Notes: generated from the letters alone by a model not told the origin. Positions 319-19,451 are shown, counted from the stretch's first letter. The stretch: 19,451 nt of DNA from a virus (IMGVR_UViG_2576861193_000001), one strand, 5' to 3'. Numbers and translations: made by a program.

Positions 319-610
319 TGCCATCACAAAAGCCATTCCCTACAGAGTGGCTTTGATAATGGCTTATACCCTACACGGGATAACTTAACTGATATCCCTT
401 TTAAAGGATAAAGGTATTCAAGCCTGACACATCATGCGCTGTATCGTCGCCGTATTCCCGCATTAACCATGACCGTAGCCCGACGGGGAATTCCTTCTGC
501 GTGAGTGTGCGGGAATAATCAAAAACGATGCACACCGGGGTTACCGGGTACACATATTTCATCATGCCAGCGAGTCCGGTTCTGGCACGGAAGAAACCGG
601 ACGTTATGAT

Positions 611-1021
611 TTAGTGCGGAAATATTTGTGTAGTGTTCTGAATGTTCTCAGTAAAGAGTAATGAATTATCAAAGGTATAGTAATATCTTTTTTGTTCGTG
701 GATATTTGTAACCCACCGAAAAACTCCTGCTTTAGCAAGGTTTCTTCTGTATTCCTGAAATGTGATCTCTCTGGATTTCAGCTTATTAGAGGTCGTTTCT
801 ATAAGATGCCTATCCTTTGAAAATTTGACAGACACAATGTTTTTTAGGCCCTTTAATAACACTGTATTATCATTTTTTAATACAATATGAACATTCTCTG
901 TGGCTAAATAGTAAATGTAATGTGAGACATTGTGACGTTTTAGCTCAGAATAAAACCATTGATAGTTTAAATCGTTTCGAACTTTATCAAATATTTGTTT
1001 AAAAATGACTACCTGATCCAT
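611..1021 (-). CDS. Hypothetical cos-proximal moron protein, 136 aa from the second ATG (141 aa if started at 1036); possibly YbcV/DUF1398-like
   Basis: Open frame 611..1036 on the minus strand in a visibly AT-rich segment. The ATG at 1021 is preceded by GGAAGG at about 7 nt, whereas the ATG at 1036 has no SD. Family assignment is from recollection of cryptic-prophage gene context (borD-ybcV-ylcI-nohD in DLP12), not verified. Confidence 0.55.
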
Positions 1022-1078
1022 AGATAAACCTTCCATGTGATATGAGGGGGCGTAGTCTGCACGATTATCTAAATTGCT

Positions 1079-1312
1079 TCAATCTGGTCTGACCTGTTTT
1101 CTGAGCAATTCAGTAATGTCACTCTTTTCTTTGTTTGCTTCAGGAGAAACTCTTTTTTCTGAGCACAGTCTCCGGCGGCAGGCTTCAATGACCCAGGCTG
1201 AGAAATTCCCGGACCCTTTTTGCTCAAGAGCGATGTTAATTTGTTCAATCATTTGGTTAGGAAAGCGGATGTTGCGGGTTGTTGTTCTGCGGGTTCTGTT
1301 CTTCGTTGACAT
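1079..1312 (-). CDS. Small ribbon-helix-helix (Arc/MetJ-like) DNA-binding protein, likely YlcI/YnfO (DUF3950) family
   Basis: 77-aa ORF with basic N-terminus, a beta-strand-like RNIRFP, helix NQMIEQINIALEQ, glycine turn KGSGNFS and helix AWVIEACRRRL, which is the RHH pattern. It sits immediately upstream of cos and Nu1, as ylcI/ynfO do in E. coli cryptic prophages (recollection). Confidence 0.65.
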   Translation of the reverse strand: MSTKNRTRRTTTRNIRFPNQMIEQINIALEQKGSGNFSAWVIEACRRRLCSEKRVSPEANKEKSDITELLRKQVRPD

Positions 1313-1481
1313 GAGGTTGTCCCGTATTCAGTGTCGCTGATTTGTATTGTCTGAAGTTGTTTTTACGTTAAGTTGATGCAGATCAATTAATACGATACCT
1401 GCGTCATAATTGATTATTTGACGTGGTTTGATGGCCTCCACGCACGTTGTGATATGTAGATGATAATCATTATCACTTTAC

Positions 1482-1675
1482 GGGTCCTTTCCGGTGATCC
1501 GACAGGTTACGGGGCGGCGACCTCGCGGGTTTTCGCTATTTATGAAAATTTTCCGGTTTAAGGCGTTTCCGTTCTTCTTCGTCATAACTTAATGTTTTTA
1601 TTTAAAATACCCTCTGAAAAGAAAGGAAACGACAGGTGCTGAAAGCGAGCTTTTTGGCCTCTGTCGTTTCCTTTC
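1482..1675 (+). other. cos: cos site: cosQ (GGGTCCT 1482..1488), cosN (12-nt cohesive-end sequence GGGCGGCGACCT 1512..1523), cosB with three Nu1-binding R elements and an AT-rich IHF-site region
   Basis: The lambda right-end sequence ...CCGACAGGTTACG is directly followed by the left-end GGGCGGCGACCTCGCGGGTTTTCGC. Heptamer CGTTTCC occurs at 1564..1570 and 1665..1671, and its reverse complement GGAAACG at 1625..1631 (R3, R1, R2). An AT-rich stretch 1586..1612 lies between R3 and R2. Confidence 0.88.
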
Positions 1676-1700
1676 TCTGTTTTTGTCCGTGGAATGAACA

Positions 1701-2220
1701 ATGGAAGTCAACAAAAAGCAGCTGGCTGACATTTTCGGTGCGAGTATCCGTACCATTCAGAACTGGCAGGAACAGGGAATGCCCGTTCTGCGAGGCGGTG
1801 GCAAGGGTAATGAGGTGCTTTATGACTCTGCCGCCGTCATAAAATGGTATGCCGAAAGGGATGCTGAAATTGAGAACGAAAAGCTGCGCCGGGAGGTTGA
1901 AGAACTGCGGCAGGCCAGCGAGGCAGATCTCCAGCCAGGAACTATTGAGTACGAACGCCATCGACTTACGCGTGCGCAGGCCGACGCACAGGAACTGAAG
2001 AATGCCAGAGACTCCGCTGAAGTGGTGGAAACCGCATTCTGTACTTTCGTGTTGTCGCGGATCGCAGGTGAAATTGCCAGTATTCTCGACGGGCTCCCCC
2101 TGTCGGTGCAGCGGCGTTTTCCGGAACTGGAAAACCGACATGTTGATTTCCTGAAACGGGATATCATCAAAGCCATGAACAAAGCAGCCGCGCTGGATGA
2201 ACTGATACCGGGGTTGCTGA

Positions 2221-2246
<26 letters not shown>
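1701..2246 (+). CDS. nu1: Terminase small subunit Nu1
   Basis: 181-aa ORF beginning MEVNKKQLADIFGASIRTIQNWQEQGMPVLRGGGKGNEVLYDS, recognised as lambda gpNu1 (winged HTH). It lies immediately downstream of cosB. Confidence 0.97.
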
Positions 2247-5927
<3,681 letters not shown>

Positions 5928-5947
<20 letters not shown>

Positions 5948-7247
5948 TCTCCCGCATATTGCCAGCATGGCCTTTAATGAGCCGCTTATGCTTGAACCCG
6001 CCTATGCGCGGGTTTTCTTTTGTGCGCTTGCAGGCCAGCTTGGGATCAGCCGCCTGACGGATGCGGTGTCCGGCGACAGCCTGACTGCCGGAGAGGCACC
6101 CGCGAAGCTGGCGTTATCCGTTAATGATGACGGACCACGACAGGCCCGCAGTTATCAGGTCATGAACGGCATCGCCGTGCTGCCGGTTTCCGGCACGCTG
6201 GTCAGCCGGACGCGGGCGCTGCAGCCGTATTCGGGGATGACCGGTTACAACGGCATTATCGCCCGTCTGCAACAGGCTGCCAGCGACCCGATGGTGGACG
6301 GCATTCTGCTGGATATGGACACGCCCGGCGGAATGGTGGCAGGGGCATTTGACTGCGCTGACATCATCGTCCGTGTGCGTGACATAAAGCCGGTATGGGC
6401 GCTGGCCAATGACATGAACTGCAGCGCAGGTCAGCTGCTTGCCAGTGCCGCCTCCCGGCGTCTGGTCACGCAGACCGCCCGGACAGGCTCCATCGGCGTC
6501 ATGATGGCTCACAGTAATTACGGTGCTGCGCTGGAGAAACAGGGCGTGGAAATCACGCTGATTTACAGCGGCAGCCATAAGGTGGATGGCAACCCCTACA
6601 GCCATCTTCCGGATGACGTCCGGGAGACACTGCAGTCCCGGATGGACGCAACCCGCCGGATGTTTGCGCAGAAGGTGTCGGCATATACCGGCCTGTCCGT
6701 GCAGGCTGTGCTGGATACCGAGGCTGCAGTGTACAGCGGTCAGGAGGCCATTGATGCCGGACTGGCTGATGAACTTGTCAACAGCACCGATGCGATCACC
6801 GTTATGCGTGATGCACTGGATGCACGTAAATCCCGTCTCTCAGGAGGGCGAATGACCAAAGAGACTCAATCAACAACTGTTTCAGCCACTGCTTCGCAGG
6901 CTGACGTTACTGACGTGGTGCCAGCGACGGAGGGCGAAAACGCCAGCGCGGCGCAGCCGGACGTGAACGCGCAGATCACCGCTGCGGTTGCGGCAGAAAA
7001 CAGCCGCATTATGGGGATCCTCAACTGTGAGGAGGCTCACGGACGCGAAGAACAGGCCCGCGTGCTGGCCGAAACCCCCGGTATGACCGTGGAAACGGCC
7101 CGCCGCATTCTGGCAGCTGCACCACAGAGTGCACAGGCGCGCAGTGACACTGCGCTGGATCGTCTGATGCAGGGGGCACCGGCACCGCTGGCTGCAGGTA
7201 ACCCGGCATCTGATGCCGTTAACGATTTGCTGAACACACCAGTGTAA
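5928..7247 (+). CDS. C: Prohead protease / minor capsid protein C
   Basis: GTG start at 5928 preceded by GAGGAGGAG at 5914..5922, giving the 439-aa length I recall for lambda gpC (VTAELRNLPHIASMAFNEPLMLEP...). Overlaps the B 3' end by 20 nt. The ORF-track start at 5814 is rejected. Confidence 0.93.
6642..7247 (+). CDS. nu3: Capsid scaffolding protein Nu3 (in-frame internal start within C)
   Basis: In-frame ATG at 6642 gives a 201-aa product sharing the C-terminus of C, which is the lambda C/Nu3 nested arrangement (established knowledge). The ATG position was verified in the sequence. Confidence 0.85.
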   Translation: MDATRRMFAQKVSAYTGLSVQAVLDTEAAVYSGQEAIDAGLADELVNSTDAITVMRDALDARKSRLSGGRMTKETQSTTVSATASQADVTDVVPATEGENASAAQPDVNAQITAAVAAENSRIMGILNCEEAHGREEQARVLAETPGMTVETARRILAAAPQSAQARSDTALDRLMQGAPAPLAAGNPASDAVNDLLNTPV

Positions 7248-7256
7248 GGGATGTTT

Positions 7257-7589
7257 ATGACGAGCAAAGAAACCTTTACCCATTACCAGCCGCTGGGCAA
7301 CAGTGACCCGGCTCATACCGCAACCGCGCCCGGCGGATTGAGTGCGAAAGCGCCTGCAATGACCCCGCTGATGCTGGACACCTCCACCCGTAAGCTGGTT
7401 GCGTGGGATGGCACCACCGACGGTGCTGCCGTTGGCATTCTTGCAGTTGCTGCTGACCAGACCAGCACCACACTGACGTTCTACAAGTCCGGCACGTTCC
7501 GTTATGAGGATGTGCTCTGGCCGGAGGCTGCCAGCAACGAGACGAAAAAACGGACCGCGTTTGCCGGAACGGCAATCAGCATCGTTTAA
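7257..7589 (+). CDS. D: Head decoration protein D
   Basis: 110-aa product [27 protein letters not shown]... recognised as lambda gpD. AAGGG lies upstream of the ATG at 7257; the alternative ATG at 7251 lacks an SD. Confidence 0.95.
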
Positions 7590-7606
7590 CTTTACCCTTC
7601 ATCACT

Positions 7607-7631
7607 AAAGGCCGCCTGTGCGGCTTTTTTT
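7607..7631 (+). terminator. Intrinsic-terminator-like hairpin between D and E (GCCGC-ctgt-GCGGC followed by T7)
   Basis: 5-bp GC stem 7611..7615 / 7620..7624 with a 4-nt loop, followed by TTTTTTT at 7625..7631. Seen directly; function inferred. Confidence 0.4.
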
Positions 7632-7644
7632 ACGGGATTTTTTT

Positions 7645-8670
7645 ATGTCGATGTACACAACCGCCCAGCTGCTGGCGGCAAATGAGCAGAAATTTAAGTT
7701 TGATCCGCTGTTTCTGCGTCTCTTTTTCCGTGAGAGCTATCCCTTCACTACGGAGAAAGTCTATCTCTCACAAATTCCGGGACTGGTAAACATGGCGCTG
7801 TACGTTTCGCCGATTGTTTCCGGTGAGGTTATCCGTTCCCGTGGCGGCTCCACCTCTGAATTTACGCCGGGATATGTCAAACCCAAGCATGAGGTGAATC
7901 CGCAGATGACCCTGCGTCGCCTGCCGGATGAAGATCCGCAGAATCTGGCGGACCCGGCTTACCGCCGCCGTCGCATCATCATGCAGAACATGCGTGACGA
8001 AGAGCTGGCCATTGCTCAGGTCGAAGAGATGCAGGCAGTTTCTGCCGTGCTCAAGGGCAAATACACCATGACCGGTGAAGCCTTCGATCCGGTTGAGGTG
8101 GATATGGGCCGCAGTGCGGCGAACAACATCACACAGTCCGGCGTCACGGAGTGGAGCAAGCGTGACAAGTCCACGTATGACCCGACCGACGATATCGAAG
8201 CCTACGCGCTGAACGCCAGCGGTGTGGTGAATATCATCGTGTTTGACCCGAAAGGCTGGGCGCTGTTCCGTTCCTTCAAAGCCGTCAAGGAGAAGCTGGA
8301 TACCCGTCGCGGCTCTCATTCCGAGCTGGAGACAGCGGTAAAAGACCTGGGCAAAGCGGTGTCCTATAAGGGGATGTATGGCGATGTGGCCATCGTCGTG
8401 TATTCCGGACAGTACGTGGAAAACGGCGTCAAAAAGAACTTCCTGCCGGACAACACGATGGTGCTGGGGAACACTCAGGCTCGCGGTCTGCGCACCTATG
8501 GCTGCATTCAGGATGCGGACGCACAGCGCGAAGGCATTAACGCTTCTGCCCGTTACCCGAAAAACTGGGTGACCACCGGCGATCCGGCGCGTGAGTTCAC
8601 CATGATTCAGTCAGCACCGCTGATGCTGCTGGCTGACCCTGATGAGTTCGTGTCCGTACAACTGGCGTAA
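7645..8670 (+). CDS. E: Major capsid protein E (HK97 fold)
   Basis: 341-aa product MSMYTTAQLLAANEQKFKFDPLFLRLFFRESYPF... recognised as lambda gpE. The ORF-track GTG start at 7618 lies inside the upstream hairpin and is rejected. Confidence 0.97.
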   Translation: MSMYTTAQLLAANEQKFKFDPLFLRLFFRESYPFTTEKVYLSQIPGLVNMALYVSPIVSGEVIRSRGGSTSEFTPGYVKPKHEVNPQMTLRRLPDEDPQNLADPAYRRRRIIMQNMRDEELAIAQVEEMQAVSAVLKGKYTMTGEAFDPVEVDMGRSAANNITQSGVTEWSKRDKSTYDPTDDIEAYALNASGVVNIIVFDPKGWALFRSFKAVKEKLDTRRGSHSELETAVKDLGKAVSYKGMYGDVAIVVYSGQYVENGVKKNFLPDNTMVLGNTQARGLRTYGCIQDADAQREGINASARYPKNWVTTGDPAREFTMIQSAPLMLLADPDEFVSVQLA

Positions 8671-8711
8671 TCATGGCCCTTCGGGGCCATTTTCTCTCTG
8701 TGGAGGAGTCC

Positions 8712-9107
8712 ATGACGAAAGATGAACTGATTGTCCGTCTCCGGTCGCTGGGTGAGCAACTGAACCGTGATGTCAGCCTGACGGGGACGAAAGAAGAACT
8801 GGCGCTCCGTGTGGCAGAGCTGGAAGAGGAGCTTGATGACACGGATGACGGAGCCGGTCAGGACTCGTCTGTCAGCCCGGAAAATGCGCTGACCGGACAT
8901 GAAAATGAGGTGGTATCAGCACAGACGGATACCGTGACTGATACGGCTGCTCTGGTCACGGTTGTGGCACTGGTGACGCTGCATACCGATGCACTTCACG
9001 CCACGCGGGATGAACCTGTGGCATTTGTGCTGCCGGGAACGGCGTTTCGTGTCTCTGCCGGTGTGGCAGCCGAAATGACAGAACGTGGCCTGGCCAGAAT
9101 GCAATAA
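8712..9107 (+). CDS. FI: DNA-packaging accessory protein FI
   Basis: Product MTKDELIVRLRSLGEQLNRDVSLTGTKEELALRVAELEEELDD... recognised as lambda gpFI. GGAGG at 8702..8706 precedes the ATG at 8712. 131 aa here. Confidence 0.93.
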   Translation: MTKDELIVRLRSLGEQLNRDVSLTGTKEELALRVAELEEELDDTDDGAGQDSSVSPENALTGHENEVVSAQTDTVTDTAALVTVVALVTLHTDALHATRDEPVAFVLPGTAFRVSAGVAAEMTERGLARMQ

Positions 9108-9118
9108 CGGGAGGCGCT

Positions 9119-9472
9119 GTGGCTGATTTCGATAACCTGTTCGATGCTGCCATTGCCCGCGCCGATGAAACGATACGCGGGTACATGGGAACGTCAGCCA
9201 CCATGACATCCGGTGAGCAGTCAGGTGCGGTGATACGTGGTGTTTTTGATGACCCTGAAAATATCAGCTATGCCGGACAGGGCGTGCGCGTTGAAGGCTC
9301 CAGCCCGTCCCTGTTTGTCCGGACTGATGAGGTGCGGCAGCTGCGGCGTGGAGACACGCTGACCATCGGTGAGGAAAATTTCTGGGTAGATCGGGTTTCG
9401 CCGGATGATGGCGGAAGTTGTCATCTCTGGCTTGGACGGGGCGTACCGCCTGCCGTTAACCGTCGCCGCTGA
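9119..9472 (+). CDS. FII: Head-tail connector protein FII
   Basis: 117-aa ORF with GTG start preceded by GGGAGG; MADFDNLFDAAIARADETIRGYMG... recognised as lambda gpFII. Confidence 0.95.
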   Translation: MADFDNLFDAAIARADETIRGYMGTSATMTSGEQSGAVIRGVFDDPENISYAGQGVRVEGSSPSLFVRTDEVRQLRRGDTLTIGEENFWVDRVSPDDGGSCHLWLGRGVPPAVNRRR

Positions 9473-9483
9473 AAGGGGGATGT

Positions 9484-10062
9484 ATGGCCATAAAAGGTCT
9501 TGAGCAGGCCGTTGAAAACCTCAGCCGTATCAGCAAAACGGCGGTGCCTGGTGCCGCCGCAATGGCCATTAACCGCGTTGCTTCATCCGCGATATCGCAG
9601 TCGGCGTCACAAGTTGCCCGTGAGACAAAGGTACGCCGGAAACTGGTAAAGGAAAGGGCCAGGCTGAAAAGGGCCACGGTCAAAAATCCGCAGGCCAGAA
9701 TCAAAGTTAACCGGGGGGATTTGCCCGTAATCAAGCTGGGTAATGCGCGGGTTGTCCTTTCGCGCCGCAGGCGTCGTAAAAAGGGGCAGCGTTCATCCCT
9801 GAAAGGTGGCGGCAGCGTGCTTGTGGTGGGTAACCGTCGTATTCCCGGCGCGTTTATTCAGCAACTGAAAAATGGCCGGTGGCATGTCATGCAGCGTGTG
9901 GCCGGGAAAAACCGTTACCCCATTGATGTGGTGAAAATCCCGATGGCGGTGCCGCTGACCACGGCGTTTAAACAAAATATTGAGCGGATACGGCGTGAAC
10001 GTCTTCCGAAAGAGCTGGGCTATGCGCTGCAGCATCAACTGAGGATGGTAATAAAGCGATGA
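9484..10062 (+). CDS. Z: Tail completion protein Z
   Basis: 192-aa ORF MAIKGLEQAVENLSRISKTAVPGAAAMAINRV... recognised as lambda gpZ. Good SD (AAGGGGGA). Confidence 0.95.
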   Translation: MAIKGLEQAVENLSRISKTAVPGAAAMAINRVASSAISQSASQVARETKVRRKLVKERARLKRATVKNPQARIKVNRGDLPVIKLGNARVVLSRRRRRKKGQRSSLKGGGSVLVVGNRRIPGAFIQQLKNGRWHVMQRVAGKNRYPIDVVKIPMAVPLTTAFKQNIERIRRERLPKELGYALQHQLRMVIKR

Positions 10063-10454
10063 AATATACTGAACTCCGTGCAGCCGTACTGGATGCACTG
10101 GAGAAGCATGACACCGGGGCGACGTTTTTTGATGGTCGCCCCGCTGTTTTTGATGAGGCGGATTTTCCGGCAGTTGCCGTTTATCTCACCGGCGCTGAAT
10201 ACACGGGCGAAGAGCTGGACAGCGATACCTGGCAGGCGGAGCTGCATATCGAAGTTTTCCTGCCTGCTCAGGTGCCGGATTCAGAGCTGGATGCGTGGAT
10301 GGAGTCCCGGATTTATCCGGTGATGAGCGATATCCCGGCACTGTCAGATTTGATCACCAGTATGGTGGCCAGCGGCTATGACTACCGGCGCGACGATGAT
10401 GCGGGCCTGTGGAGTTCAGCCGATCTGACTTATGTCATTACCTATGAAATGTGA
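10059..10454 (+). CDS. U: Tail terminator protein U
   Basis: 131-aa [51 protein letters not shown]... recognised as lambda gpU. ATGA overlap with the Z stop. Confidence 0.96.
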
Positions 10455-10461
10455 GGACGCT

Positions 10462-11202
10462 ATGCCTGTACCAAATCCTACAATGCCGGTGAAAGGTGCC
10501 GGGACCACCCTGTGGGTTTATAAGGGGAGCGGTGACCCTTATGCGAATCCGCTTTCAGACGTTGACTGGTCGCGTCTGGCAAAAGTTAAAGACCTGACGC
10601 CCGGCGAACTGACCGCTGAGTCCTATGACGACAGCTATCTCGATGATGAAGATGCAGACTGGACTGCGACCGGGCAGGGGCAGAAATCTGCCGGAGATAC
10701 CAGCTTCACGCTGGCGTGGATGCCCGGAGAGCAGGGGCAGCAGGCGCTGCTGGCGTGGTTTAATGAAGGTGATACCCGTGCCTATAAAATCCGCTTCCCG
10801 AACGGCACGGTCGATGTGTTCCGTGGCTGGGTCAGCAGTATCGGTAAGGCGGTGACGGCGAAGGAAGTGATTACCCGCACGGTGAAGGTCACCAATGTGG
10901 GACGTCCGTCGATGGCAGAAGATCGCAGCACGGTGACGGCGACAACCGGCATGACGGTGACACCCGCCAGTGCCTCCGTAGTGAAAGGGCAGAGCACCAC
11001 GCTGACCGTGGCATTCCAGCCGGAAGGCGCAACCGACAAGAGCTTCCGTGCGGTGTCTGCGGATAAAACAAAAGCCACCGTGTCGGTCAGTGGTATGACC
11101 ATCACCGTGAAAGGTGTTGCTGCAGGCAAGGTCAACATTCCGGTTGTATCCGGTAATGGTGAACTTGCTGCGGTTGCAGAAATTACCGTCACCGCCAGTT
11201 AA
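10462..11202 (+). CDS. V: Major tail tube protein V (with C-terminal Ig-like domain)
   Basis: 246-aa product [36 protein letters not shown]... recognised as lambda gpV. GAGGA precedes the ATG at 10462; the track start at 10432 is rejected. The C-terminal repeat-like [19 protein letters not shown]... fits the known Ig-like (Big_2) decoration domain. Confidence 0.96.
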
Positions 11203-11217
11203 TCCGGAGAGTCAGCG

Positions 11218-11640
11218 ATGTTCCTGAAAACCGAATCATTTGAACATAACGGTGTGACCGTCACGCTTTCTGAACTGTCAGCCCTGCAGCGTATTGAGCA
11301 TCTCGCCCTGATGAAACGGCAGGCAGAACAGGCGGAGTCAGACAGCAACCGGAAGTTTACTGTGGAAGACGCCATCAGAACCGGCGCGTTTCTGGTGGCG
11401 ATGTCCCTGTGGCATAACCATCCGCAGAAGACAAAGCTGCCGTCCATGAATGAAGCCGTTAAACAGATTGAGCAGGAAGTGCTTACCACCTGGCCCACGG
11501 AGGCAATTTCTCATGCTGAAAACGTGGTGTACCGGCTGTCTGGTATGTATGAGTTTGTGGTGAATAATGCCCCTGAACAGACAGAGGACGCCGGGCCCGC
11601 AGAGCCTGTTTCTGCGGGAAAGTGTTCGACGGTGAGCTGA
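11218..11640 (+). CDS. G: Tail assembly chaperone G
   Basis: 140-aa ORF MFLKTESFEHNGVTVTLSELSALQRIEHLALMKRQAEQ... recognised as lambda gpG. Confidence 0.95.
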   Translation: MFLKTESFEHNGVTVTLSELSALQRIEHLALMKRQAEQAESDSNRKFTVEDAIRTGAFLVAMSLWHNHPQKTKLPSMNEAVKQIEQEVLTTWPTEAISHAENVVYRLSGMYEFVVNNAPEQTEDAGPAEPVSAGKCSTVS

Positions 11641-12056
11641 GTTTTGCCCTGAAACTGGCGCGTGAGATGGGGCGACCCGACTGGCGTGCCATGCTTGCCG
11701 GGATGTCATCCACGGAGTATGCCGACTGGCACCGCTTTTACAGTACCCATTATTTTCATGATGTTCTGCTGGATATGCACTTTTCCGGGCTGACGTACAC
11801 CGTGCTCAGCCTGTTTTTCAGCGATCCGGATATGCATCCGCTGGATTTCAGTCTGCTGAACCGGCGCGAGGCTGACGAAGAGCCTGAAGATGATGTGCTG
11901 ATGCAGAAAGCGGCAGGGCTTGCCGGAGGTGTCCGCTTTGGCCCGGACGGGAATGAAGTTATCCCTACTTCCCCGGATGTGGCGGACATGACGGAGGATG
12001 ACGTAATGCTGATGACAGTATCAGAAGGGATCGCAGGAGGAGTCCGGTATGGCTGA
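11218..12056 (+). CDS. GT: Tail assembly chaperone G-T fusion produced by -1 frameshift near 11621/11622
   Basis: G frame joined to the T frame at the slippery site. The T-frame product ...FDGELSFALKLAREMGRPDWRAMLAGMSSTEYADWHRFYSTHYF... is recognised as the lambda gpT portion. T is not expected to be translated independently. Confidence 0.85.
11616..11622 (+). promoter_or_regulatory. Programmed -1 ribosomal frameshift slippery heptamer G GGA AAG (G to G-T)
   Basis: GGGAAAG at 11616..11622 with GGA and AAG in the G zero frame; the -1 frame is open from 11622 to 12056 (the T frame). Matches the lambda G/GT frameshift site (established knowledge). Confidence 0.85.
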
Positions 12057-14628
12057 ACCGGTAGGCGATCTGGTCGTTGATTTGAGTCTGGATGCGGCCA
12101 GATTTGACGAGCAGATGGCCAGAGTCAGGCGTCATTTTTCCGGTACGGAAAGTGATGCGAAAAAAACAGCGGCAGTCGTTGAACAGTCGATGAACCGGCA
12201 GGCGCTGGCTGCACAGAAAGCGGGAATTTCCGTCGGGCAGTATAAAGCCGCCATGCGTATGCTGCCTGCGCAGTTCACTGACGTGGCCACGCAGCTTGCA
12301 GGCGGGCAAAGTCCGTGGCTGATCCTGCTGCAACAGGGGGGTCAGGTGAAGGACTCCTTCGGCGGGATGATCCCCATGTTCCGGGGGCTTGCCGGTGCGA
12401 TCACCCTGCCGATGGTGGGGGCCACCTCGCTGGCGGTGGCGACCGGTGCGCTGGCGTATGCCTGGTATCAGGGCAACTCAACCCTGTCCGATTTCAACAA
12501 AACGCTGGTCCTTTCCGGCAATCAGGCCGGGCTGACGGCAGATCGTATGCTGGTCCTGTCCAGAGCCGGGCAGGCGGCAGGGCTGACGTTTAACCAGACC
12601 AGCGAGTCACTCAGCGCACTGGTTAAGGCGGGGGTAAGCGGTGAGGCTCAGATTGCGTCCATCAGCCAGAGTGTGGCGCGTTTCTCCTCTGCATCCGGCG
12701 TGGAGGTGGACAAGGTCGCTGAAGCCTTCGGGAAGCTGACCACTGACCCGACGTCGGGGCTGACGGCGATGGCACGCCAGTTCCATAACGTGACGGCGGA
12801 GCAGATTGCGTATGTTGCTCAGTTGCAGCGTTCCGGCGATGAAGCCGGGGCATTGCAGGCGGCGAACGAGGCCGCAACGAAAGGGTTTGATGACCAGACC
12901 CGCCGCCTGAAAGAGAACATGGGCACGCTGGAAACCTGGGCAGACAGGACAGCACGGGCATTCAAATCCATGTGGGATTCGGTGCTGGATATTGGTCGCC
13001 CGGACACTGCCCAGGGAATGCTGGAGAAAGCAGAAAAGGCTTTTGATGAGGCGGACAAAAAATGGCAGTGGTATCAGAGCCGGAGCCACCGGCGCGGTAA
13101 AACCTCAGCATTTCTTGCCAATCTCCGGGGAGCATGGGAGGACAGAGCGAATGCGCAACTTGGGCTTTCAGCCGCCACGTTGCAGGCCGATCTTGAAAAG
13201 GCCAGAGAGATGGCAGCAAAGGACTGGGCCGAGTCTGAGGCATCACGGCTGAAATATACCGAAGAGGCGCAGAAGGCTTACGAACGGCTGCAGACGCCGC
13301 TGGAGAAATATACCGCCCGTCAGGAAGAACTGAACAAGGCACTGAAAGACGGGAAAATCCTGCAGGCGGATTACAACACGCTGATGGCGGCGGCGAAAAA
13401 GGATTATGAAGCGACGCTGAAAAAGCCGAAACAGTCCGGCGTGAAGGTGTCTGCGGGCGATCGTCAGGAAGACAGTGCTCATGCTGCCCTGCTGACGCTT
13501 CAGGCAGAACTCCGGACGCTGGAGAAGCATGCCGGAGCAAATGAGAAAATCAGCCAGCAGCGCCGGGATTTGTGGAAGGCGGAGAGTCAGTTCGCGGTAC
13601 TGGAGGAGGCGGCGCAACGTCGCCAGCTGTCTGCACAGGAGAAATCCCTGCTGGCGCATAAAGATGAGACGCTGGAGTACAAACGCCAGCTGGCTGCACT
13701 TGGCGACAAGGTTACGTATCAGGAGCGCCTGAACGCGCTGGCGCAGCAGGCGGATAAATTCGCACAGCAGCAACGGGCAAAACGGGCCGCCATTGATGCG
13801 AAAAGCCGGGGGCTGACTGACCGGCAGGCAGAACGGGAAGCCACGGAACAGCGCCTGAAGGAACAGTATGGCGATAATCCGCTGGCGCTGAATAACGTCA
13901 TGTCAGAGCAGAAAAAGACCTGGGCGGCTGAAGACCAGCTTCGCGGGAGCTGGATGGCAGGCCTGAAGTCCGGCTGGAGTGAGTGGGAAGAGAGCGCCAC
14001 GGACAGTATGTCGCAGGTTAAAAGTGCAGCCACGCAGACCTTTGATGGTATTGCACAGAATATGGCGGCGATGCTGACCGGCAGTGAGCAGAACTGGCGC
14101 AGCTTCACCCGTTCCGTGCTGTCCATGATGACAGAAATTCTGCTTAAGCAGGCAATGGTGGGGATTGTCGGGAGTATCGGCAGCGCCATTGGCGGTGCTG
14201 CCAGTGGTGGAGCATCCGCGTCAGGCGGTACAGCCATTCAGGCCGCTGCGGCGAAATTCCATTTTGCGACCGGGGGATTTACGGGAACCGGCGGCAAATA
14301 TGAGCCAGCGGGGATTGTTCACCGTGGTGAATTTGTCTTCACGAAGGAGGCAACCAGCCGGATTGGTGTCGGCAACCTGTACCGCCTGATGCGGGGCTAT
14401 GCGGAAGGTGGTTATGTGGGCGGTGCCGGAAGTCCGGCGCAGATGCGGCGGGCTGAAGGCATTAATTTTAATCAGAACAATCACGTGGTGATTCAGAACG
14501 ACGGTACGAATGGTCTGCCAGGTCCACAGATGATGAAGGCAGTGTATGACATGGCCCGCAAGGGTGCCCGTGATGAAATTCAGACACAGATGCGTGATGG
14601 TGGCCTGTTCTCCGGAGGTGGACGATGA
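12049..14628 (+). CDS. H: Tail tape measure protein H
   Basis: 859-aa ORF MAEPVGDLVVDLSLDAARFDEQMARVRRHFSGTESDAKKTAAVVEQ... recognised as lambda gpH. AGGAGG precedes the start, which overlaps the T-frame stop. Long Ala/Gln/Glu-rich helical middle and a Gly-rich C-terminus. Confidence 0.96.
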   Translation: MAEPVGDLVVDLSLDAARFDEQMARVRRHFSGTESDAKKTAAVVEQSMNRQALAAQKAGISVGQYKAAMRMLPAQFTDVATQLAGGQSPWLILLQQGGQVKDSFGGMIPMFRGLAGAITLPMVGATSLAVATGALAYAWYQGNSTLSDFNKTLVLSGNQAGLTADRMLVLSRAGQAAGLTFNQTSESLSALVKAGVSGEAQIASISQSVARFSSASGVEVDKVAEAFGKLTTDPTSGLTAMARQFHNVTAEQIAYVAQLQRSGDEAGALQAANEAATKGFDDQTRRLKENMGTLETWADRTARAFKSMWDSVLDIGRPDTAQGMLEKAEKAFDEADKKWQWYQSRSHRRGKTSAFLANLRGAWEDRANAQLGLSAATLQADLEKAREMAAKDWAESEASRLKYTEEAQKAYERLQTPLEKYTARQEELNKALKDGKILQADYNTLMAAAKKDYEATLKKPKQSGVKVSAGDRQEDSAHAALLTLQAELRTLEKHAGANEKISQQRRDLWKAESQFAVLEEAAQRRQLSAQEKSLLAHKDETLEYKRQLAALGDKVTYQERLNALAQQADKFAQQQRAKRAAIDAKSRGLTDRQAEREATEQRLKEQYGDNPLALNNVMSEQKKTWAAEDQLRGSWMAGLKSGWSEWEESATDSMSQVKSAATQTFDGIAQNMAAMLTGSEQNWRSFTRSVLSMMTEILLKQAMVGIVGSIGSAIGGAASGGASASGGTAIQAAAAKFHFATGGFTGTGGKYEPAGIVHRGEFVFTKEATSRIGVGNLYRLMRGYAEGGYVGGAGSPAQMRRAEGINFNQNNHVVIQNDGTNGLPGPQMMKAVYDMARKGARDEIQTQMRDGGLFSGGGR

Positions 14629-14954
14629 AAACCTTCCGCTGGAAAGTGAAACCCGGTATGGATGTGGCTTCGGCCCCTTCTGTAAGAAAGGTGCGCTTTG
14701 GTGATGGCTATTCCCAGCGAGCGCCTGCCGGGCTGAATGCCAACCTGAAAACGTACAGCGTGACGCTTTCTGTCCCCCGTGAGGAGGCCACGGTACTGGA
14801 GTCGTTTCTGGAAGAGCACGGGGGCTGGAAAGCCTTTCTGTGGACGCCGCCTTATGAGTGGCGGCAGATAAAGGTGACCTGCGCAAAATGGTCGTCGCGG
14901 GTCAGTATGCTGCGTGTTGAGTTCAGCGCAGAGTTTGAACAGGTGGTGAACTGA
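14625..14954 (+). CDS. M: Tail tip protein M
   Basis: 109-aa ORF MKTFRWKVKPGMDVASAPSVRKVRFGDGYSQRAPAGLNANLKTY... recognised as lambda gpM. ATGA overlap with the H stop. Confidence 0.96.
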   Translation: MKTFRWKVKPGMDVASAPSVRKVRFGDGYSQRAPAGLNANLKTYSVTLSVPREEATVLESFLEEHGGWKAFLWTPPYEWRQIKVTCAKWSSRVSMLRVEFSAEFEQVVN

Positions 14955-15652
14955 TGCAGGATATCCGGCAGGAAACACTGAATGAATGCACCCGTGCGGA
15001 GCAGTCGGCCAGCGTGGTGCTCTGGGAAATCGACCTGACAGAGGTCGGTGGAGAACGTTATTTTTTCTGTAATGAGCTGAACGAAAAAGGTGAGCCGGTC
15101 ACCTGGCAGGGGCGACAGTATCAGCCGTATCCCATTCAGGGGAGTGGTTTTGAACTGAATGGCAAAGGCACCAGTACGCGCCCCACGCTGACGGTTTCTA
15201 ACCTGTACGGTATGGTCACCGGGATGGCGGAAGATCTGCAGAGTCTGGTCGGCGGAACGGTGGTCCGGCGTAAGGTTTACGCCCGTTTTCTGGATGCGGT
15301 GAACTTCGTTAACGGAAACAGTGACGCCGATCCGGAGCAGGAGGTGATCAGCCGCTGGCGCATCGAGCAGTGCAGCGAACTGAGCGCGGTGAGTGCCTCC
15401 TTTGTACTGTCCACGCCGACGGAAACAGATGGCGCTGTTTTTCCGGGACGTATCATGCTGGCCAACACCTGCACCTGGACCTATCGCGGCGATGAGTGCG
15501 GTTATCACGGTCCGGCGGTCGCGGATGAATATGACCAGACAACGTCCGATATCACGAAGGATAAATGCAGCAAATGCCTGAGTGGCTGTAAGTTTCGCAA
15601 TAACGTCGGCAACTTTGGCGGCTTCCTTTCCATTAACAAACTTTCGCAGTAA
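14954..15652 (+). CDS. L: Tail tip protein L (C-terminal Cys cluster)
   Basis: 232-aa ORF MQDIRQETLNECTRAEQSASVVLWEIDLTEVGGERYFF... recognised as lambda gpL. C-terminal CSKCLSGCKF cysteine cluster is consistent with the reported Fe-S site. Start overlaps the M stop (TGATG). Confidence 0.96.
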   Translation: MQDIRQETLNECTRAEQSASVVLWEIDLTEVGGERYFFCNELNEKGEPVTWQGRQYQPYPIQGSGFELNGKGTSTRPTLTVSNLYGMVTGMAEDLQSLVGGTVVRRKVYARFLDAVNFVNGNSDADPEQEVISRWRIEQCSELSAVSASFVLSTPTETDGAVFPGRIMLANTCTWTYRGDECGYHGPAVADEYDQTTSDITKDKCSKCLSGCKFRNNVGNFGGFLSINKLSQ

Positions 15653-15657
15653 ATCCC

Positions 15658-16401
15658 ATGACACAGACAGAATCAGCGATTCTGGCGCACGCCCGGCGAT
15701 GTGCGCCAGCGGAGTCGTGCGGCTTCGTGGTAAGCACGCCGGAGGGGGAAAGATATTTCCCCTGCGTGAATATCTCCGGTGAGCCGGAGGCGTATTTCCG
15801 TATGTCGCCGGAGGACTGGCTGCAGGCAGAAATGCAGGGTGAGATTGTGGCGCTGGTCCACAGCCACCCCGGTGGTCTGCCCTGGCTGAGTGAGACTGAC
15901 CGGCGGCTGCAGGTGCAGAGTGATTTGCCGTGGTGGCTGGTCTGCCGGGGGACGATTCATAAGTTCCGCTGTGTGCCGCATCTCACCGGGCGGCGCTTTG
16001 AGCACGGTGTGACGGACTGTTACACACTGTTCCGGGATGCTTATCATCTGGCGGGGATTGAGATGCCGGACTTTCATCGTGAGGATGACTGGTGGCGTAA
16101 CGGCCAGAATCTCTATCTGGATAATCTGGAGGCCACAGGGCTGTATCAGGTGCCGTTGTCATCAGCACAACCGGGCGATGTGCTGCTGTGCTGTTTTGGT
16201 TCATCGGTGCCGAATCATGCCGCCATTTACTGTGGTGATGGCGAGCTGCTGCACCATATTCCTGAACAACTGAGCAAACGAGAGAGGTATACCGACAAAT
16301 GGCAGCGACGCACACACTCCCTCTGGCGTCACCGGGCATGGCGCGCATCTGCCTTTACGGGGATTTACAACGATTTGGCCGCCGCATCGACCTTCGTGTG
16401 A
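15658..16401 (+). CDS. K: Tail tip assembly protein K (JAMM/MPN-like domain followed by NlpC/P60-like domain); start ambiguous (15658 vs 15802)
   Basis: Open frame from ATG 15658 (6 nt after the L stop) to TGA 16401. A complete JAMM motif HSHPGGLPWLSETD (H-x-H-x7-S-x2-D) with an upstream Glu (AESCGF) is intact only if translation starts at 15658. The classical 199-aa lambda K would start at the internal ATG 15802. C-terminal Cys/His motifs (TDCYTLF, NHAAIY) suggest NlpC/P60. Confidence 0.85.
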   Translation: MTQTESAILAHARRCAPAESCGFVVSTPEGERYFPCVNISGEPEAYFRMSPEDWLQAEMQGEIVALVHSHPGGLPWLSETDRRLQVQSDLPWWLVCRGTIHKFRCVPHLTGRRFEHGVTDCYTLFRDAYHLAGIEMPDFHREDDWWRNGQNLYLDNLEATGLYQVPLSSAQPGDVLLCCFGSSVPNHAAIYCGDGELLHHIPEQLSKRERYTDKWQRRTHSLWRHRAWRASAFTGIYNDLAAASTFV

Positions 16402-16970
16402 AAACGGGGGCTGAAGCCATCCGCGCACTGGCCACACAGCTCCCGGCGTTTCGTCAGAAACTGAGCGACGGCTGGTATCAGGTACGGATTGCCGGGCAGG
16501 ATGTCAGCACGTCCGGATTAACGGCGCAGTTACATGAGACTCTGCCTGATGGCGCTGTGATTCATATTGTTCCCAGAGTCGCCGGGGCCAAGTCAGGTGG
16601 CGTATTCCAGATTGTCCTGGGGGCTGCCGCCATTGCCGGATCATTCTTTACCGCCGGGGCCACCCTTGCAGCATGGGGGGCAGCCATTGGGGCCGGTGGT
16701 ATGACCGGCATCCTGTTTTCTCTCGGTGCCAGTATGGTGCTCGGTGGTGTGGCGCAGATGCTGGCACCGAAAGCCAGAACTCCCCGTACACAGACAACGG
16801 ATAACGGCAAACAGAACACCTATTTCTCCTCACTGGATAACATGGTTGCCCAGGGCAATGTTCTGCCGGTTCTGTACGGTGAAATGCGCGTGGGGTCGCG
16901 GGTGGTCTCTCAGGAGATCAGCACGGCAGACGAAGGGGATGGTGGTCAGGTTGTGGTGATTGGTCGCTGA
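16299..16970 (+). CDS. I: Tail tip assembly protein I
   Basis: 223-aa ORF MAATHTLPLASPGMARICLYGDLQRFGRRIDLRVKTGAEAIRALA... recognised as lambda gpI. Overlaps the K 3' end by 103 nt in a different frame. Confidence 0.95.
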   Translation: MAATHTLPLASPGMARICLYGDLQRFGRRIDLRVKTGAEAIRALATQLPAFRQKLSDGWYQVRIAGQDVSTSGLTAQLHETLPDGAVIHIVPRVAGAKSGGVFQIVLGAAAIAGSFFTAGATLAAWGAAIGAGGMTGILFSLGASMVLGGVAQMLAPKARTPRTQTTDNGKQNTYFSSLDNMVAQGNVLPVLYGEMRVGSRVVSQEISTADEGDGGQVVVIGR

Positions 16971-16987
16971 TGAAAAACGTTTATGTG

Positions 16988-17015
16988 AAACCGCCTCCGG
17001 GCGGTTTTGTCGTTT
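16988..17015 (+). terminator. Intrinsic-terminator-like hairpin between I and J (AAACCGCC-tccg-GGCGGTTT followed by T-rich tract)
   Basis: 8-bp stem 16988..16995 / 17000..17007, 4-nt loop, then TTTTGTCGTTT. Seen directly; function inferred. Confidence 0.45.
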
Positions 17016-17026
17016 ATGGAGCGTGA

Positions 17027-19451
<2,425 letters not shown>

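Follow-up and report, generated by a model that had tools for sequence, protein, structure and literature searches.

The genes considered here are already known, as are their position in phage lambda and in the DLP12 and Qin prophages, the AT-rich accessory character of the DNA that holds them, and the recombination hot spot on this side of cos. In lambda and DLP12 the order is bor, lambdap78 (ybcV), lambdap79 (ybcW), ylcI and cos, and in the Qin prophage of Escherichia coli K-12 the order is ydfO, ynfO and nohA. Lambda has long been known to join a GC-rich left arm to an AT-rich right part, and Hendrix and colleagues reportedly defined the extra genes of lambdoid phages termed morons, of which lambda bor and lom are examples. 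Recombination between lambda and DLP12 runs across the same region, with 10 of 19 sequenced junctions beside cos; terminase leaves a free end that stimulates recombination to this side of cos, and ybcV::Kan is viable (PMC3945230).

We analyzed a window of 19,451 nt that extends from the right end of a lambda-like prophage through cos and into the head and tail genes. The left edge of the window is the outer end of an IS1 element. Alignment with related prophages begins only at base 52, bases 1-60 have about 10 matches in each E. coli genome, both chromosomal and plasmid-borne, and in strain CREC-629 the match of these bases directly adjoins an IS1B transposase CDS. Between the IS1 end and cos lie two minus-strand open reading frames (ORFs), at 611-1036 and 1079-1312. 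The variable region is anchored on the right by Nu1, the first GC-rich late gene, which is followed by A, B, C, D, E and onward to J. The features are as follows.

1-51, no strand assigned: outer end of IS1, with the remaining IS outside the window to the left; context only.
401-565, minus strand: small ORF of 54 aa from the ORF listing, left of the AT-rich gene.
574-600, no strand assigned: conserved hairpin (CCGGTT...AACCGG) where the variable module has its left junction, 10 nt beyond the DUF1398 stop codon.
611-1036, minus strand: DUF1398 gene of the ydfO type (Pfam PF07166), the real compositional island.
1064-1069, minus strand: candidate -10-like hexamer GATAAT upstream of the DUF1398 gene, with a weight-matrix score of 4.9 (background level) and a poor -35.
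1079-1312, minus strand: ylcI/ynfO-type gene (DUF3950, 77 aa; Pfam PF13132 and NCBIfam).
1082-1098, no strand assigned: palindrome ATCTGGTCTGACCTGTT, read from the sequence, with reverse complement AACAGGTCAGACCAGAT.
1482-1700, plus strand: cos region, placed from the sequence and from an alignment of six architectures.
1701-2246, plus strand: Nu1, the terminase small subunit (Pfam Phage_Nu1, 333 bits).

We consider it probable that the segment upstream of cos is an accessory ('moron'-type) region of lambda-like Escherichia prophages, located between the lysis genes and cos and holding two independent leftward genes. The outcome is a corrected reading of the locus, in which the step in GC content belongs to the architecture of the phage, only the ydfO-like gene is an island, and the two genes are separable. 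It concerns two very common prophage proteins, one of known structure and the other a probable small DNA-binding protein.

Both minus-strand ORFs are genuine genes under purifying selection, with dN/dS values of 0.14 to 0.25. The product of ORF 611-1036 matches Pfam PF07166 over profile positions 1-119 of 119 (157.6 bits, cut-off 22), is identical at 138 of 140 positions to YdfO of the K-12 Qin prophage, for which there is an NMR structure (PDB 2HH8), and shares 80% identity with lambda gp78, which is of the ybcV type. Its true start is likely the second ATG, at 1021, which is preceded by GGAAGG and gives a protein of 136 aa; RefSeq homologues are annotated at 411 nt (136 aa). Against two other alleles its dN/dS is 0.17 and 0.25. 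The DUF1398 family is small, with 206 representatives (E at or below 0.001), many of them fragments, among 1.84 billion clusters at 50% identity, and K-12 YcgX is a 45% paralogue. The product of ORF 1079-1312 scores 75.6 bits against Pfam PF13132 (cut-off 25) and 36.7 against the NCBIfam model YlcI_YnfO_N, NF041551 (cut-off 30), and is identical at 53 of 55 positions (96%) to the copy at the lambda right end. Residues 1-50, encoded by 1163-1312, form the conserved domain, with a dN/dS of 0.14 against the copy in an Stx phage, and 1079-1162 encode the C-terminal tail. Database homologues likewise pair a conserved N terminus with hypervariable tails, the tail here being one of many alternatives.

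The segment 600-1400 had been described beforehand as much more AT-rich than the morphogenesis genes, and calculation of GC content and codon usage bears this out far beyond chance (GC 0.368, against 0.575 for 1701-19451). The lowest 426-nt window in the 19.4 kb starts at 603, with a GC of 0.310, and to the right of 1700 every window of this length has a GC of at least 0.507. Measured against a baseline of 17 late genes (mean GC 0.568, mean GC3 0.623), ORF 611-1036 has a GC of 0.315 and a GC3 of 0.317 (z = -11.1 and -7.6, respectively), and an equally low GC3 was never reached when 141 codons were drawn 20,000 times from the late-gene pool. The use of A/T-ending codons, ascribed by the preliminary description to the segment as a whole, is pronounced in this ORF (68%) but milder in the YlcI ORF (GC 0.449, GC3 0.462; z = -5.2 and -4.0; resampling frequency 0.0006).

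What the calculation does not sustain is a discontinuity that coincides with the two minus-strand genes. The best GC change point falls at 1717-1735, the start of Nu1, and everything to the left of it is low, with a GC of 0.414 for 1-1700 as a whole and 0.418 for the non-coding cos DNA at 1313-1700. Phage lambda has the same step, from 0.569 in its first 20 kb to 0.449 in the remainder, which makes the step at cos/Nu1 the segmental composition of the phage itself. It is the lambda-type contrast of left arm and right part and no cassette edge. The contrast with GC-rich genes from 1700 onward is real, but it is the general difference between the arms of lambda. These figures also bear on an alternative in which the AT-richness is simply the normal base composition of the lambdoid right part and of cos-proximal DNA, and there is no island at all. 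The uniformly low 1-1700, a change point at Nu1 that lies away from the gene borders, and the agreement of ylcI (0.449) with the lambda baseline all fit that view. It is nevertheless unlikely, as the DUF1398 gene is far under the right-part baseline. In lambda, the gp78 gene (0.326) has the second-lowest GC of 67 CDS and is the sole stretch below 0.36 in 426-nt windows outside the b region. Moreover, the DUF1398 gene comes and goes between phages with near-identical flanks, and three alleles diverged to a dS of ~0.55 all still have 32 to 33% GC. The true compositional outlier is the DUF1398 gene only; ylcI, with a GC of 0.436 in lambda, is ordinary for the lambda right arm. The foreign origin that had been read from composition is likewise favored for the DUF1398 gene and not for ylcI.

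The junctions of the variable module were read from the alignment of six architectures. On the left, GGAAGAAAC, the sequence of the hairpin at 574-600, is invariant in all six, and the variants diverge directly to its right; in the type with YlcI and bor, the hairpin is fused directly to the ylcI 3' end. On the right, the architectures are near-identical from CGGGTCCTTTCCGG rightward, ~30 nt left of cosN, and because all of them converge there, the variable region ends at cosQ. The same bases are the first of the invariant cos core, on its cosQ side. The cohesive-end sequence of cosN, GGGCGGCGACCT, lies at 1512-1523, the cosB inverted repeats are at 1620-1676, with inverted repeat I1 found, and phage DE3 has an annotated cos site under the matching segment. 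Relative to lambda, ~560 bp with gp79 is missing, and the breakpoint is inside the 3' part of ylcI, which accounts for the conservation of the first 50 residues and for the different tail (77 aa here and 64 aa in lambda). The mosaic of junctions fits the lambda x DLP12 experiments. We propose that modules would be swapped by homologous recombination in the conserved flanks and that, as in those crosses, exchange may be favored by the double-strand end left when terminase cuts at cos.

To the left of the hairpin, the 54-aa ORF at 401-565 is found by tblastn at 86 to 100% identity in most Nu1-linked contigs, including those that have neither DUF1398 nor YlcI. Its homologues are labeled 'hypothetical' in phages Chlobot and PhiR70_1, and comparison with PHROG gave no match.

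To follow the two genes across phages, we collected Nu1-linked loci and searched their upstream DNA by tblastn. Of the 80 closest Nu1 relatives, 76 IMG/VR contigs have Nu1 at 98% identity or more and 1.5 kb or more of DNA upstream of it; this sample includes related E. coli prophages, and the counts below are not counts of independent events.

YlcI and DUF1398 upstream of Nu1: 37 of 76 contigs, 9 of the 37 also with plus-strand gp79, as in lambda.
YlcI without DUF1398: 22 of 76 contigs, 16 of the 22 carrying bor instead.
Neither YlcI nor DUF1398: 17 of 76 contigs.
DUF1398 without YlcI: 0 of 76 contigs.

DUF1398 is thus present in 37 contigs and absent from 39, and YlcI is present in 59 and absent from 17. 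With one representative genome per species, 6 of 7 Escherichia/Shigella loci whose Nu1 is 98% identical or more carry both genes upstream of it, and none of 12 loci with Nu1 at 83 to 87%, from Enterobacter, Citrobacter, Kluyvera, Kosakonia, Klebsiella and others, does so. Within E. coli the arrangement is common: 950 of 5,426 complete genomes contain 80% or more of bases 1-1800, and in RefSeq the same pair occurs upstream of nohD or DNA-packaging genes in hundreds of E. coli genomes. The expectation that the region is accessory and not part of the core is upheld by these data, since content between the lysis genes and cosQ varies even among the 76 contigs and the pair is absent in the 12 loci of other genera.

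The same data speak against a cassette that is present or absent as a unit. YlcI occurs alone in 22 of the 76 contigs, and in the phage collection its domain is found in 153 records, many of them Stx-converting phages, versus 43 records for DUF1398, nearly all lambda-like Escherichia phages. In Stx phage YYZ-2008, the YlcI gene stands alone and antisense between Rz and an unrelated HNH/TerS/TerL module, and in lambda gp79 sits between the two genes. What moves is the DUF1398 gene, with YlcI as its more persistent neighbor. With respect to the marks of a moron, both genes vary in presence between conserved neighbors, and deviating composition is seen in the DUF1398 gene (0.315, against 0.568 for the late genes and 0.449 for the lambda right part) and not in ylcI.

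A single operon, with an RHH regulator or antitoxin, YlcI, followed by an effector or toxin, DUF1398, and with both genes gained and lost together, would suit the close packing of the genes, with ylcI first, a gap of 42 nt, and the same strand and reading frame, as well as the absence of DUF1398 without YlcI from the 76 contigs. We judge it very unlikely given how often YlcI occurs without DUF1398 in both the contigs and the phage records. In lambda and DLP12, moreover, the genes are ~560 bp apart with an oppositely oriented gene between them, and the paralogue YcgX is located elsewhere in K-12, beside bluR. YdfO overexpression is described as protective and non-toxic (PMC4077768), ybcV knockouts are viable (PMC3945230), and so are phages that lack both genes. 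There was also no PADLOC match; among the PADLOC-DB defense models none was significant, the DUF1398 protein matching only Csx23, at an E value of 0.013, and YlcI nothing. A type II toxin-antitoxin pair was rejected specifically, as obligate co-occurrence fails on the distribution and on the intervening gene of lambda.

Returning to two independent genes, we propose that YlcI would most likely be a small dimeric ribbon-helix-helix (RHH)-type DNA-binding protein, an assignment that we leave as a lead. Over ~50 residues the protein has a basic N-terminal arm, an N-I-R-F-P strand-like motif, and two helices with a Gly-containing turn; like the DUF1398 product it is basic and soluble, with a pI of 10.6 and no 19-residue window above a hydrophobicity of 0.5. 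Profile comparison by hhalign with Arc and with the Arc-family profile gave a probability of 2 to 5%, in a register with Arc that matches the predicted helices. Sequence and profile searches of the PDB returned no relative of YlcI, and a search of Pfam with E values up to 10 returned no RHH family. A tblastn match to YlcI in Pasteurella phage Pmp7 (40% identity) was discarded, as it lies on the opposite strand of a CDS annotated as a 'transcriptional repressor.'

Two more specific roles for YlcI can be considered. One is a function in the phage cycle that is tied to the packaging site, such as DNA binding at cos, close to it, or where the lysis genes meet the packaging genes. YlcI does keep the same place before the packaging genes both in lambda-like phages with Nu1/A and in Stx phages with the unrelated HNH/TerS/TerL genes, it is retained more often than its neighbors, and the low dN/dS of its N-terminal domain (0.14) indicates strong conservation. 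However, ylcI is antisense to the late operon, it is missing from 17 of 76 contigs that share the cos sequence and have Nu1 of 98% identity or more as well as from the 12 Nu1 loci of other enterobacterial genera, and genetic work on lambda never turned it up, the gene having long been missing from the annotation of that phage. We therefore regard this role as highly improbable. The other is that YlcI is an Arc-like RHH regulator, so far unrecognized, that temperate Escherichia phages with unrelated packaging modules all keep antisense at the lysis/packaging junction. Produced by the prophage, it would control leftward cargo such as the DUF1398 gene, or hinder late transcription or packaging of incoming related phages, with the ylcI 3' end acting as a recombination joint for cargo swaps. 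If true, this would explain the hypervariable C-terminal tails, yet taken as a whole it is improbable.

With regard to expression, homology with lambda places both genes antisense to late transcription, in agreement with the preliminary description; that late transcription still enters the region despite the IS1 at its left edge is uncertain. The promoter of their own that had been postulated for the minus-strand genes did not emerge from two scans, neither of which gave a sigma-70 match above the late-region background. The consensus scan found no minus-strand sigma-70 promoter upstream of either gene, and in the weight-matrix scan the best minus-strand scores, 4.9 to 6.6, equal the background of the late region, at ~2 to 5 per kb and strand. 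The hairpin at 574-600 forms on both strands, with z values of only -0.9 and -1.1, which are not significant, and no minus-strand U tract; it is at most a candidate terminator. Terminator-like matches lay only within genes or on the wrong strand, and an Rfam scan of 1-2000 returned only chance microRNA matches.

A more suggestive element is the palindrome at 1082-1098, as AACAGGTCAGACCAGAT is identical to the PdhR-box sequence reported for the K-12 ynfO/ydfO locus (PMC7660256). It is positioned just upstream of the GATAAT hexamer, within homology common to lambda upstream of gp78, and a PdhR-box sequence beside GATAAT would suit a weak, activator-dependent promoter. In a pdhR mutant, ybcV mRNA is down 10-fold, and PdhR boxes are reported at both ybcV/ybcW and ynfO/ydfO (PMC7660256). 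An ionic liquid induces ydfO, 12-fold in microarray data and 117-fold when measured by qPCR, and overexpression of YdfO is cited as increasing resistance to oxidative stress (PMC4077768). A strain tolerant of sabinene has raised expression of ybcV. As these homologues reside in cryptic K-12 prophages without late transcription, we count their expression as independent of it. We do not count the response to T4 MotB, under which ybcV and ybcW rise more than 1000-fold, as evidence of H-NS silencing, since lambda S and R also rose, which points to prophage induction.

By analogy with these homologues, an own promoter and expression in the lysogen are plausible for the present prophage. In the mechanism that we propose, leftward transcription of the DUF1398 gene would be driven by a weak, activator-dependent promoter of its own in the DNA just upstream, a stretch that carries the PdhR-box sequence of K-12 ydfO. 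Such a promoter would allow the gene to be expressed without prophage induction, in response to stress or metabolic signals and outside the late operon. Being so AT-rich, the gene is probably also a target of H-NS silencing.

We would expect the DUF1398 product to be soluble, basic and cytoplasmic and to act on the host, as suggested by the stress tolerance that its K-12 homologue is reported to raise, and not to form part of the virion or envelope. The protein has a pI of 9.5 and a GRAVY of -0.54, and no 19-residue window exceeds a hydrophobicity of 0.5; its AlphaFold model (pLDDT 49) is too poor for a fold search. Lambda gp78 (lambdap78) is non-essential by CRISPRi (PMC10695390). The labels 'head protein' and 'envelope protein,' found in PHROG 413, RefSeq and older lambda annotation, are attached to a protein without a membrane segment, and they are unsupported because gp78 is non-essential and the gene is missing from many phages with identical head genes. 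The current database labels are probably wrong.

Compared with the systems described, the locus combines familiar parts in a different way. Lambda and DLP12 have homologues of both genes in the same place, both antisense to the late operon in lambda, and the lambda gp78 gene is similarly low in GC. Unlike lambda and DLP12, the window is without bor and without the ~560-bp segment that holds plus-strand gp79/ybcW, it has a ydfO allele rather than ybcV, and its YlcI tail is different and longer. The resemblance of YlcI to the Arc, Mnt and CopG RHH repressors and to RHH antitoxins lies in the arm, the strand-like motif, the helices, the Gly turn, and overall size. Like morons, the region consists of extra genes between conserved neighbors, with variable presence, deviating composition, opposite strand, and dispensability for lytic growth; unlike them, it yielded no flanking promoter or terminator in the consensus scans, and the composition of ylcI is ordinary. 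The likeness to the ydfO-ynfO-nohA segment of Qin extends to both genes, which there too have this order and orientation and directly precede a Nu1 homologue, to YdfO itself (138 of 140 residues), and to an identical ynfO/ydfO PdhR-box sequence, and an E. coli chromosome has the same arrangement at ~1.63 Mb, with 97 to 98% protein identity. Qin, however, is a decayed remnant, whereas here the two genes follow an IS1 end and lead into the full Nu1-to-J set of head and tail genes.

Homologues of the DUF1398 gene (611-1036, minus strand) are labelled inconsistently, as "head protein" in PHROG 413 and for RefSeq lambda gp78 versus "putative envelope protein" elsewhere. Both labels are at odds with a soluble, basic and non-essential protein, and the absence of DUF1398 from many phages that carry the same head genes also counts against them. 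Annotation of the neighboring gene is uneven as well: the lambda homologue of ylcI (1079-1312, minus strand), located at lambda 48109-48303 (locus L163), is unannotated in the reference NC_001416, where lambdap79 is the final annotated coding sequence, and it is annotated in newer records such as that of phage O276.

The two minus-strand genes share a reading frame, with only one TGA and 13 sense codons separating ylcI from the DUF1398 open reading frame (1036-1081). A 233-aa ylcI-DUF1398 "fusion" in which this TGA is read as Trp is on record in the protein database (P0121, in a cluster of 761 member sequences drawn from Logan and ENA). This fusion is probably a gene-calling artefact, and stop-codon read-through of the TGA is a possible alternative origin.

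At the left edge, the window starts with an IS1 terminal repeat (1-51). The insertion point lies ~120 bp past the site occupied by a GIY-YIG nuclease gene in related prophages, and another Escherichia coli strain, 1506, has an independent IS1 insertion ~180 bp downstream of its own DUF1398 gene. Between IS1 and DUF1398 in the window lies a small reading frame:

401-565, minus strand, 54-aa ORF, 86-100% identity in most contigs linked to the terminase small subunit gene Nu1

This ORF is kept regardless of which accessory genes the Nu1-linked contigs carry, and a family search against PHROG returned no match for it.

Nu1 itself is found at 98-100% identity in assemblies of unrelated organisms, including Kitasatospora, Chromatium, Paenibacillus, Pseudomonas, Oceanobacillus, Shewanella and others (loci L006-L013, L017, L022, L024-L026, L038, L040, L043, L044, L048, L050-L052, L055, L062 and L064). 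Several of these contigs are ~48.4-48.5 kb long and begin near cos, some at ~1x coverage, and the Nu1 contigs in such assemblies look like contaminating phage lambda control DNA. The record "Campylobacter phage CJLB-4" (MW057783.1, 48,361 bp; phage-collection match H126) has a YbcV gene with 79.6% identity, the same value as phage lambda, at approximately the lambda coordinates, and may be lambda under a different name.

Among YlcI homologues, the N-terminal 50 residues are near-invariant, while the C-terminal tails are many and unrelated (homologue alignment A2; window 1079-1162), a diversity consistent with recombination breakpoints within the 3' end of ylcI. A direct repeat, CTGTTTTCTGAGCA (1094-1107) and CTTTTTTCTGAGCA (1152-1165), sits at the position of the additional 560-bp gp79 segment of lambda and could be left over from a microhomology-mediated rearrangement. 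In a CRISPRi screen lambdap79 scored as essential, whereas earlier work has it as non-essential (PMC10695390). The essential score may reflect a polar effect on late transcription, which is suspected because the gene is on the late-transcript strand, just ahead of cos. The window lacks gp79.
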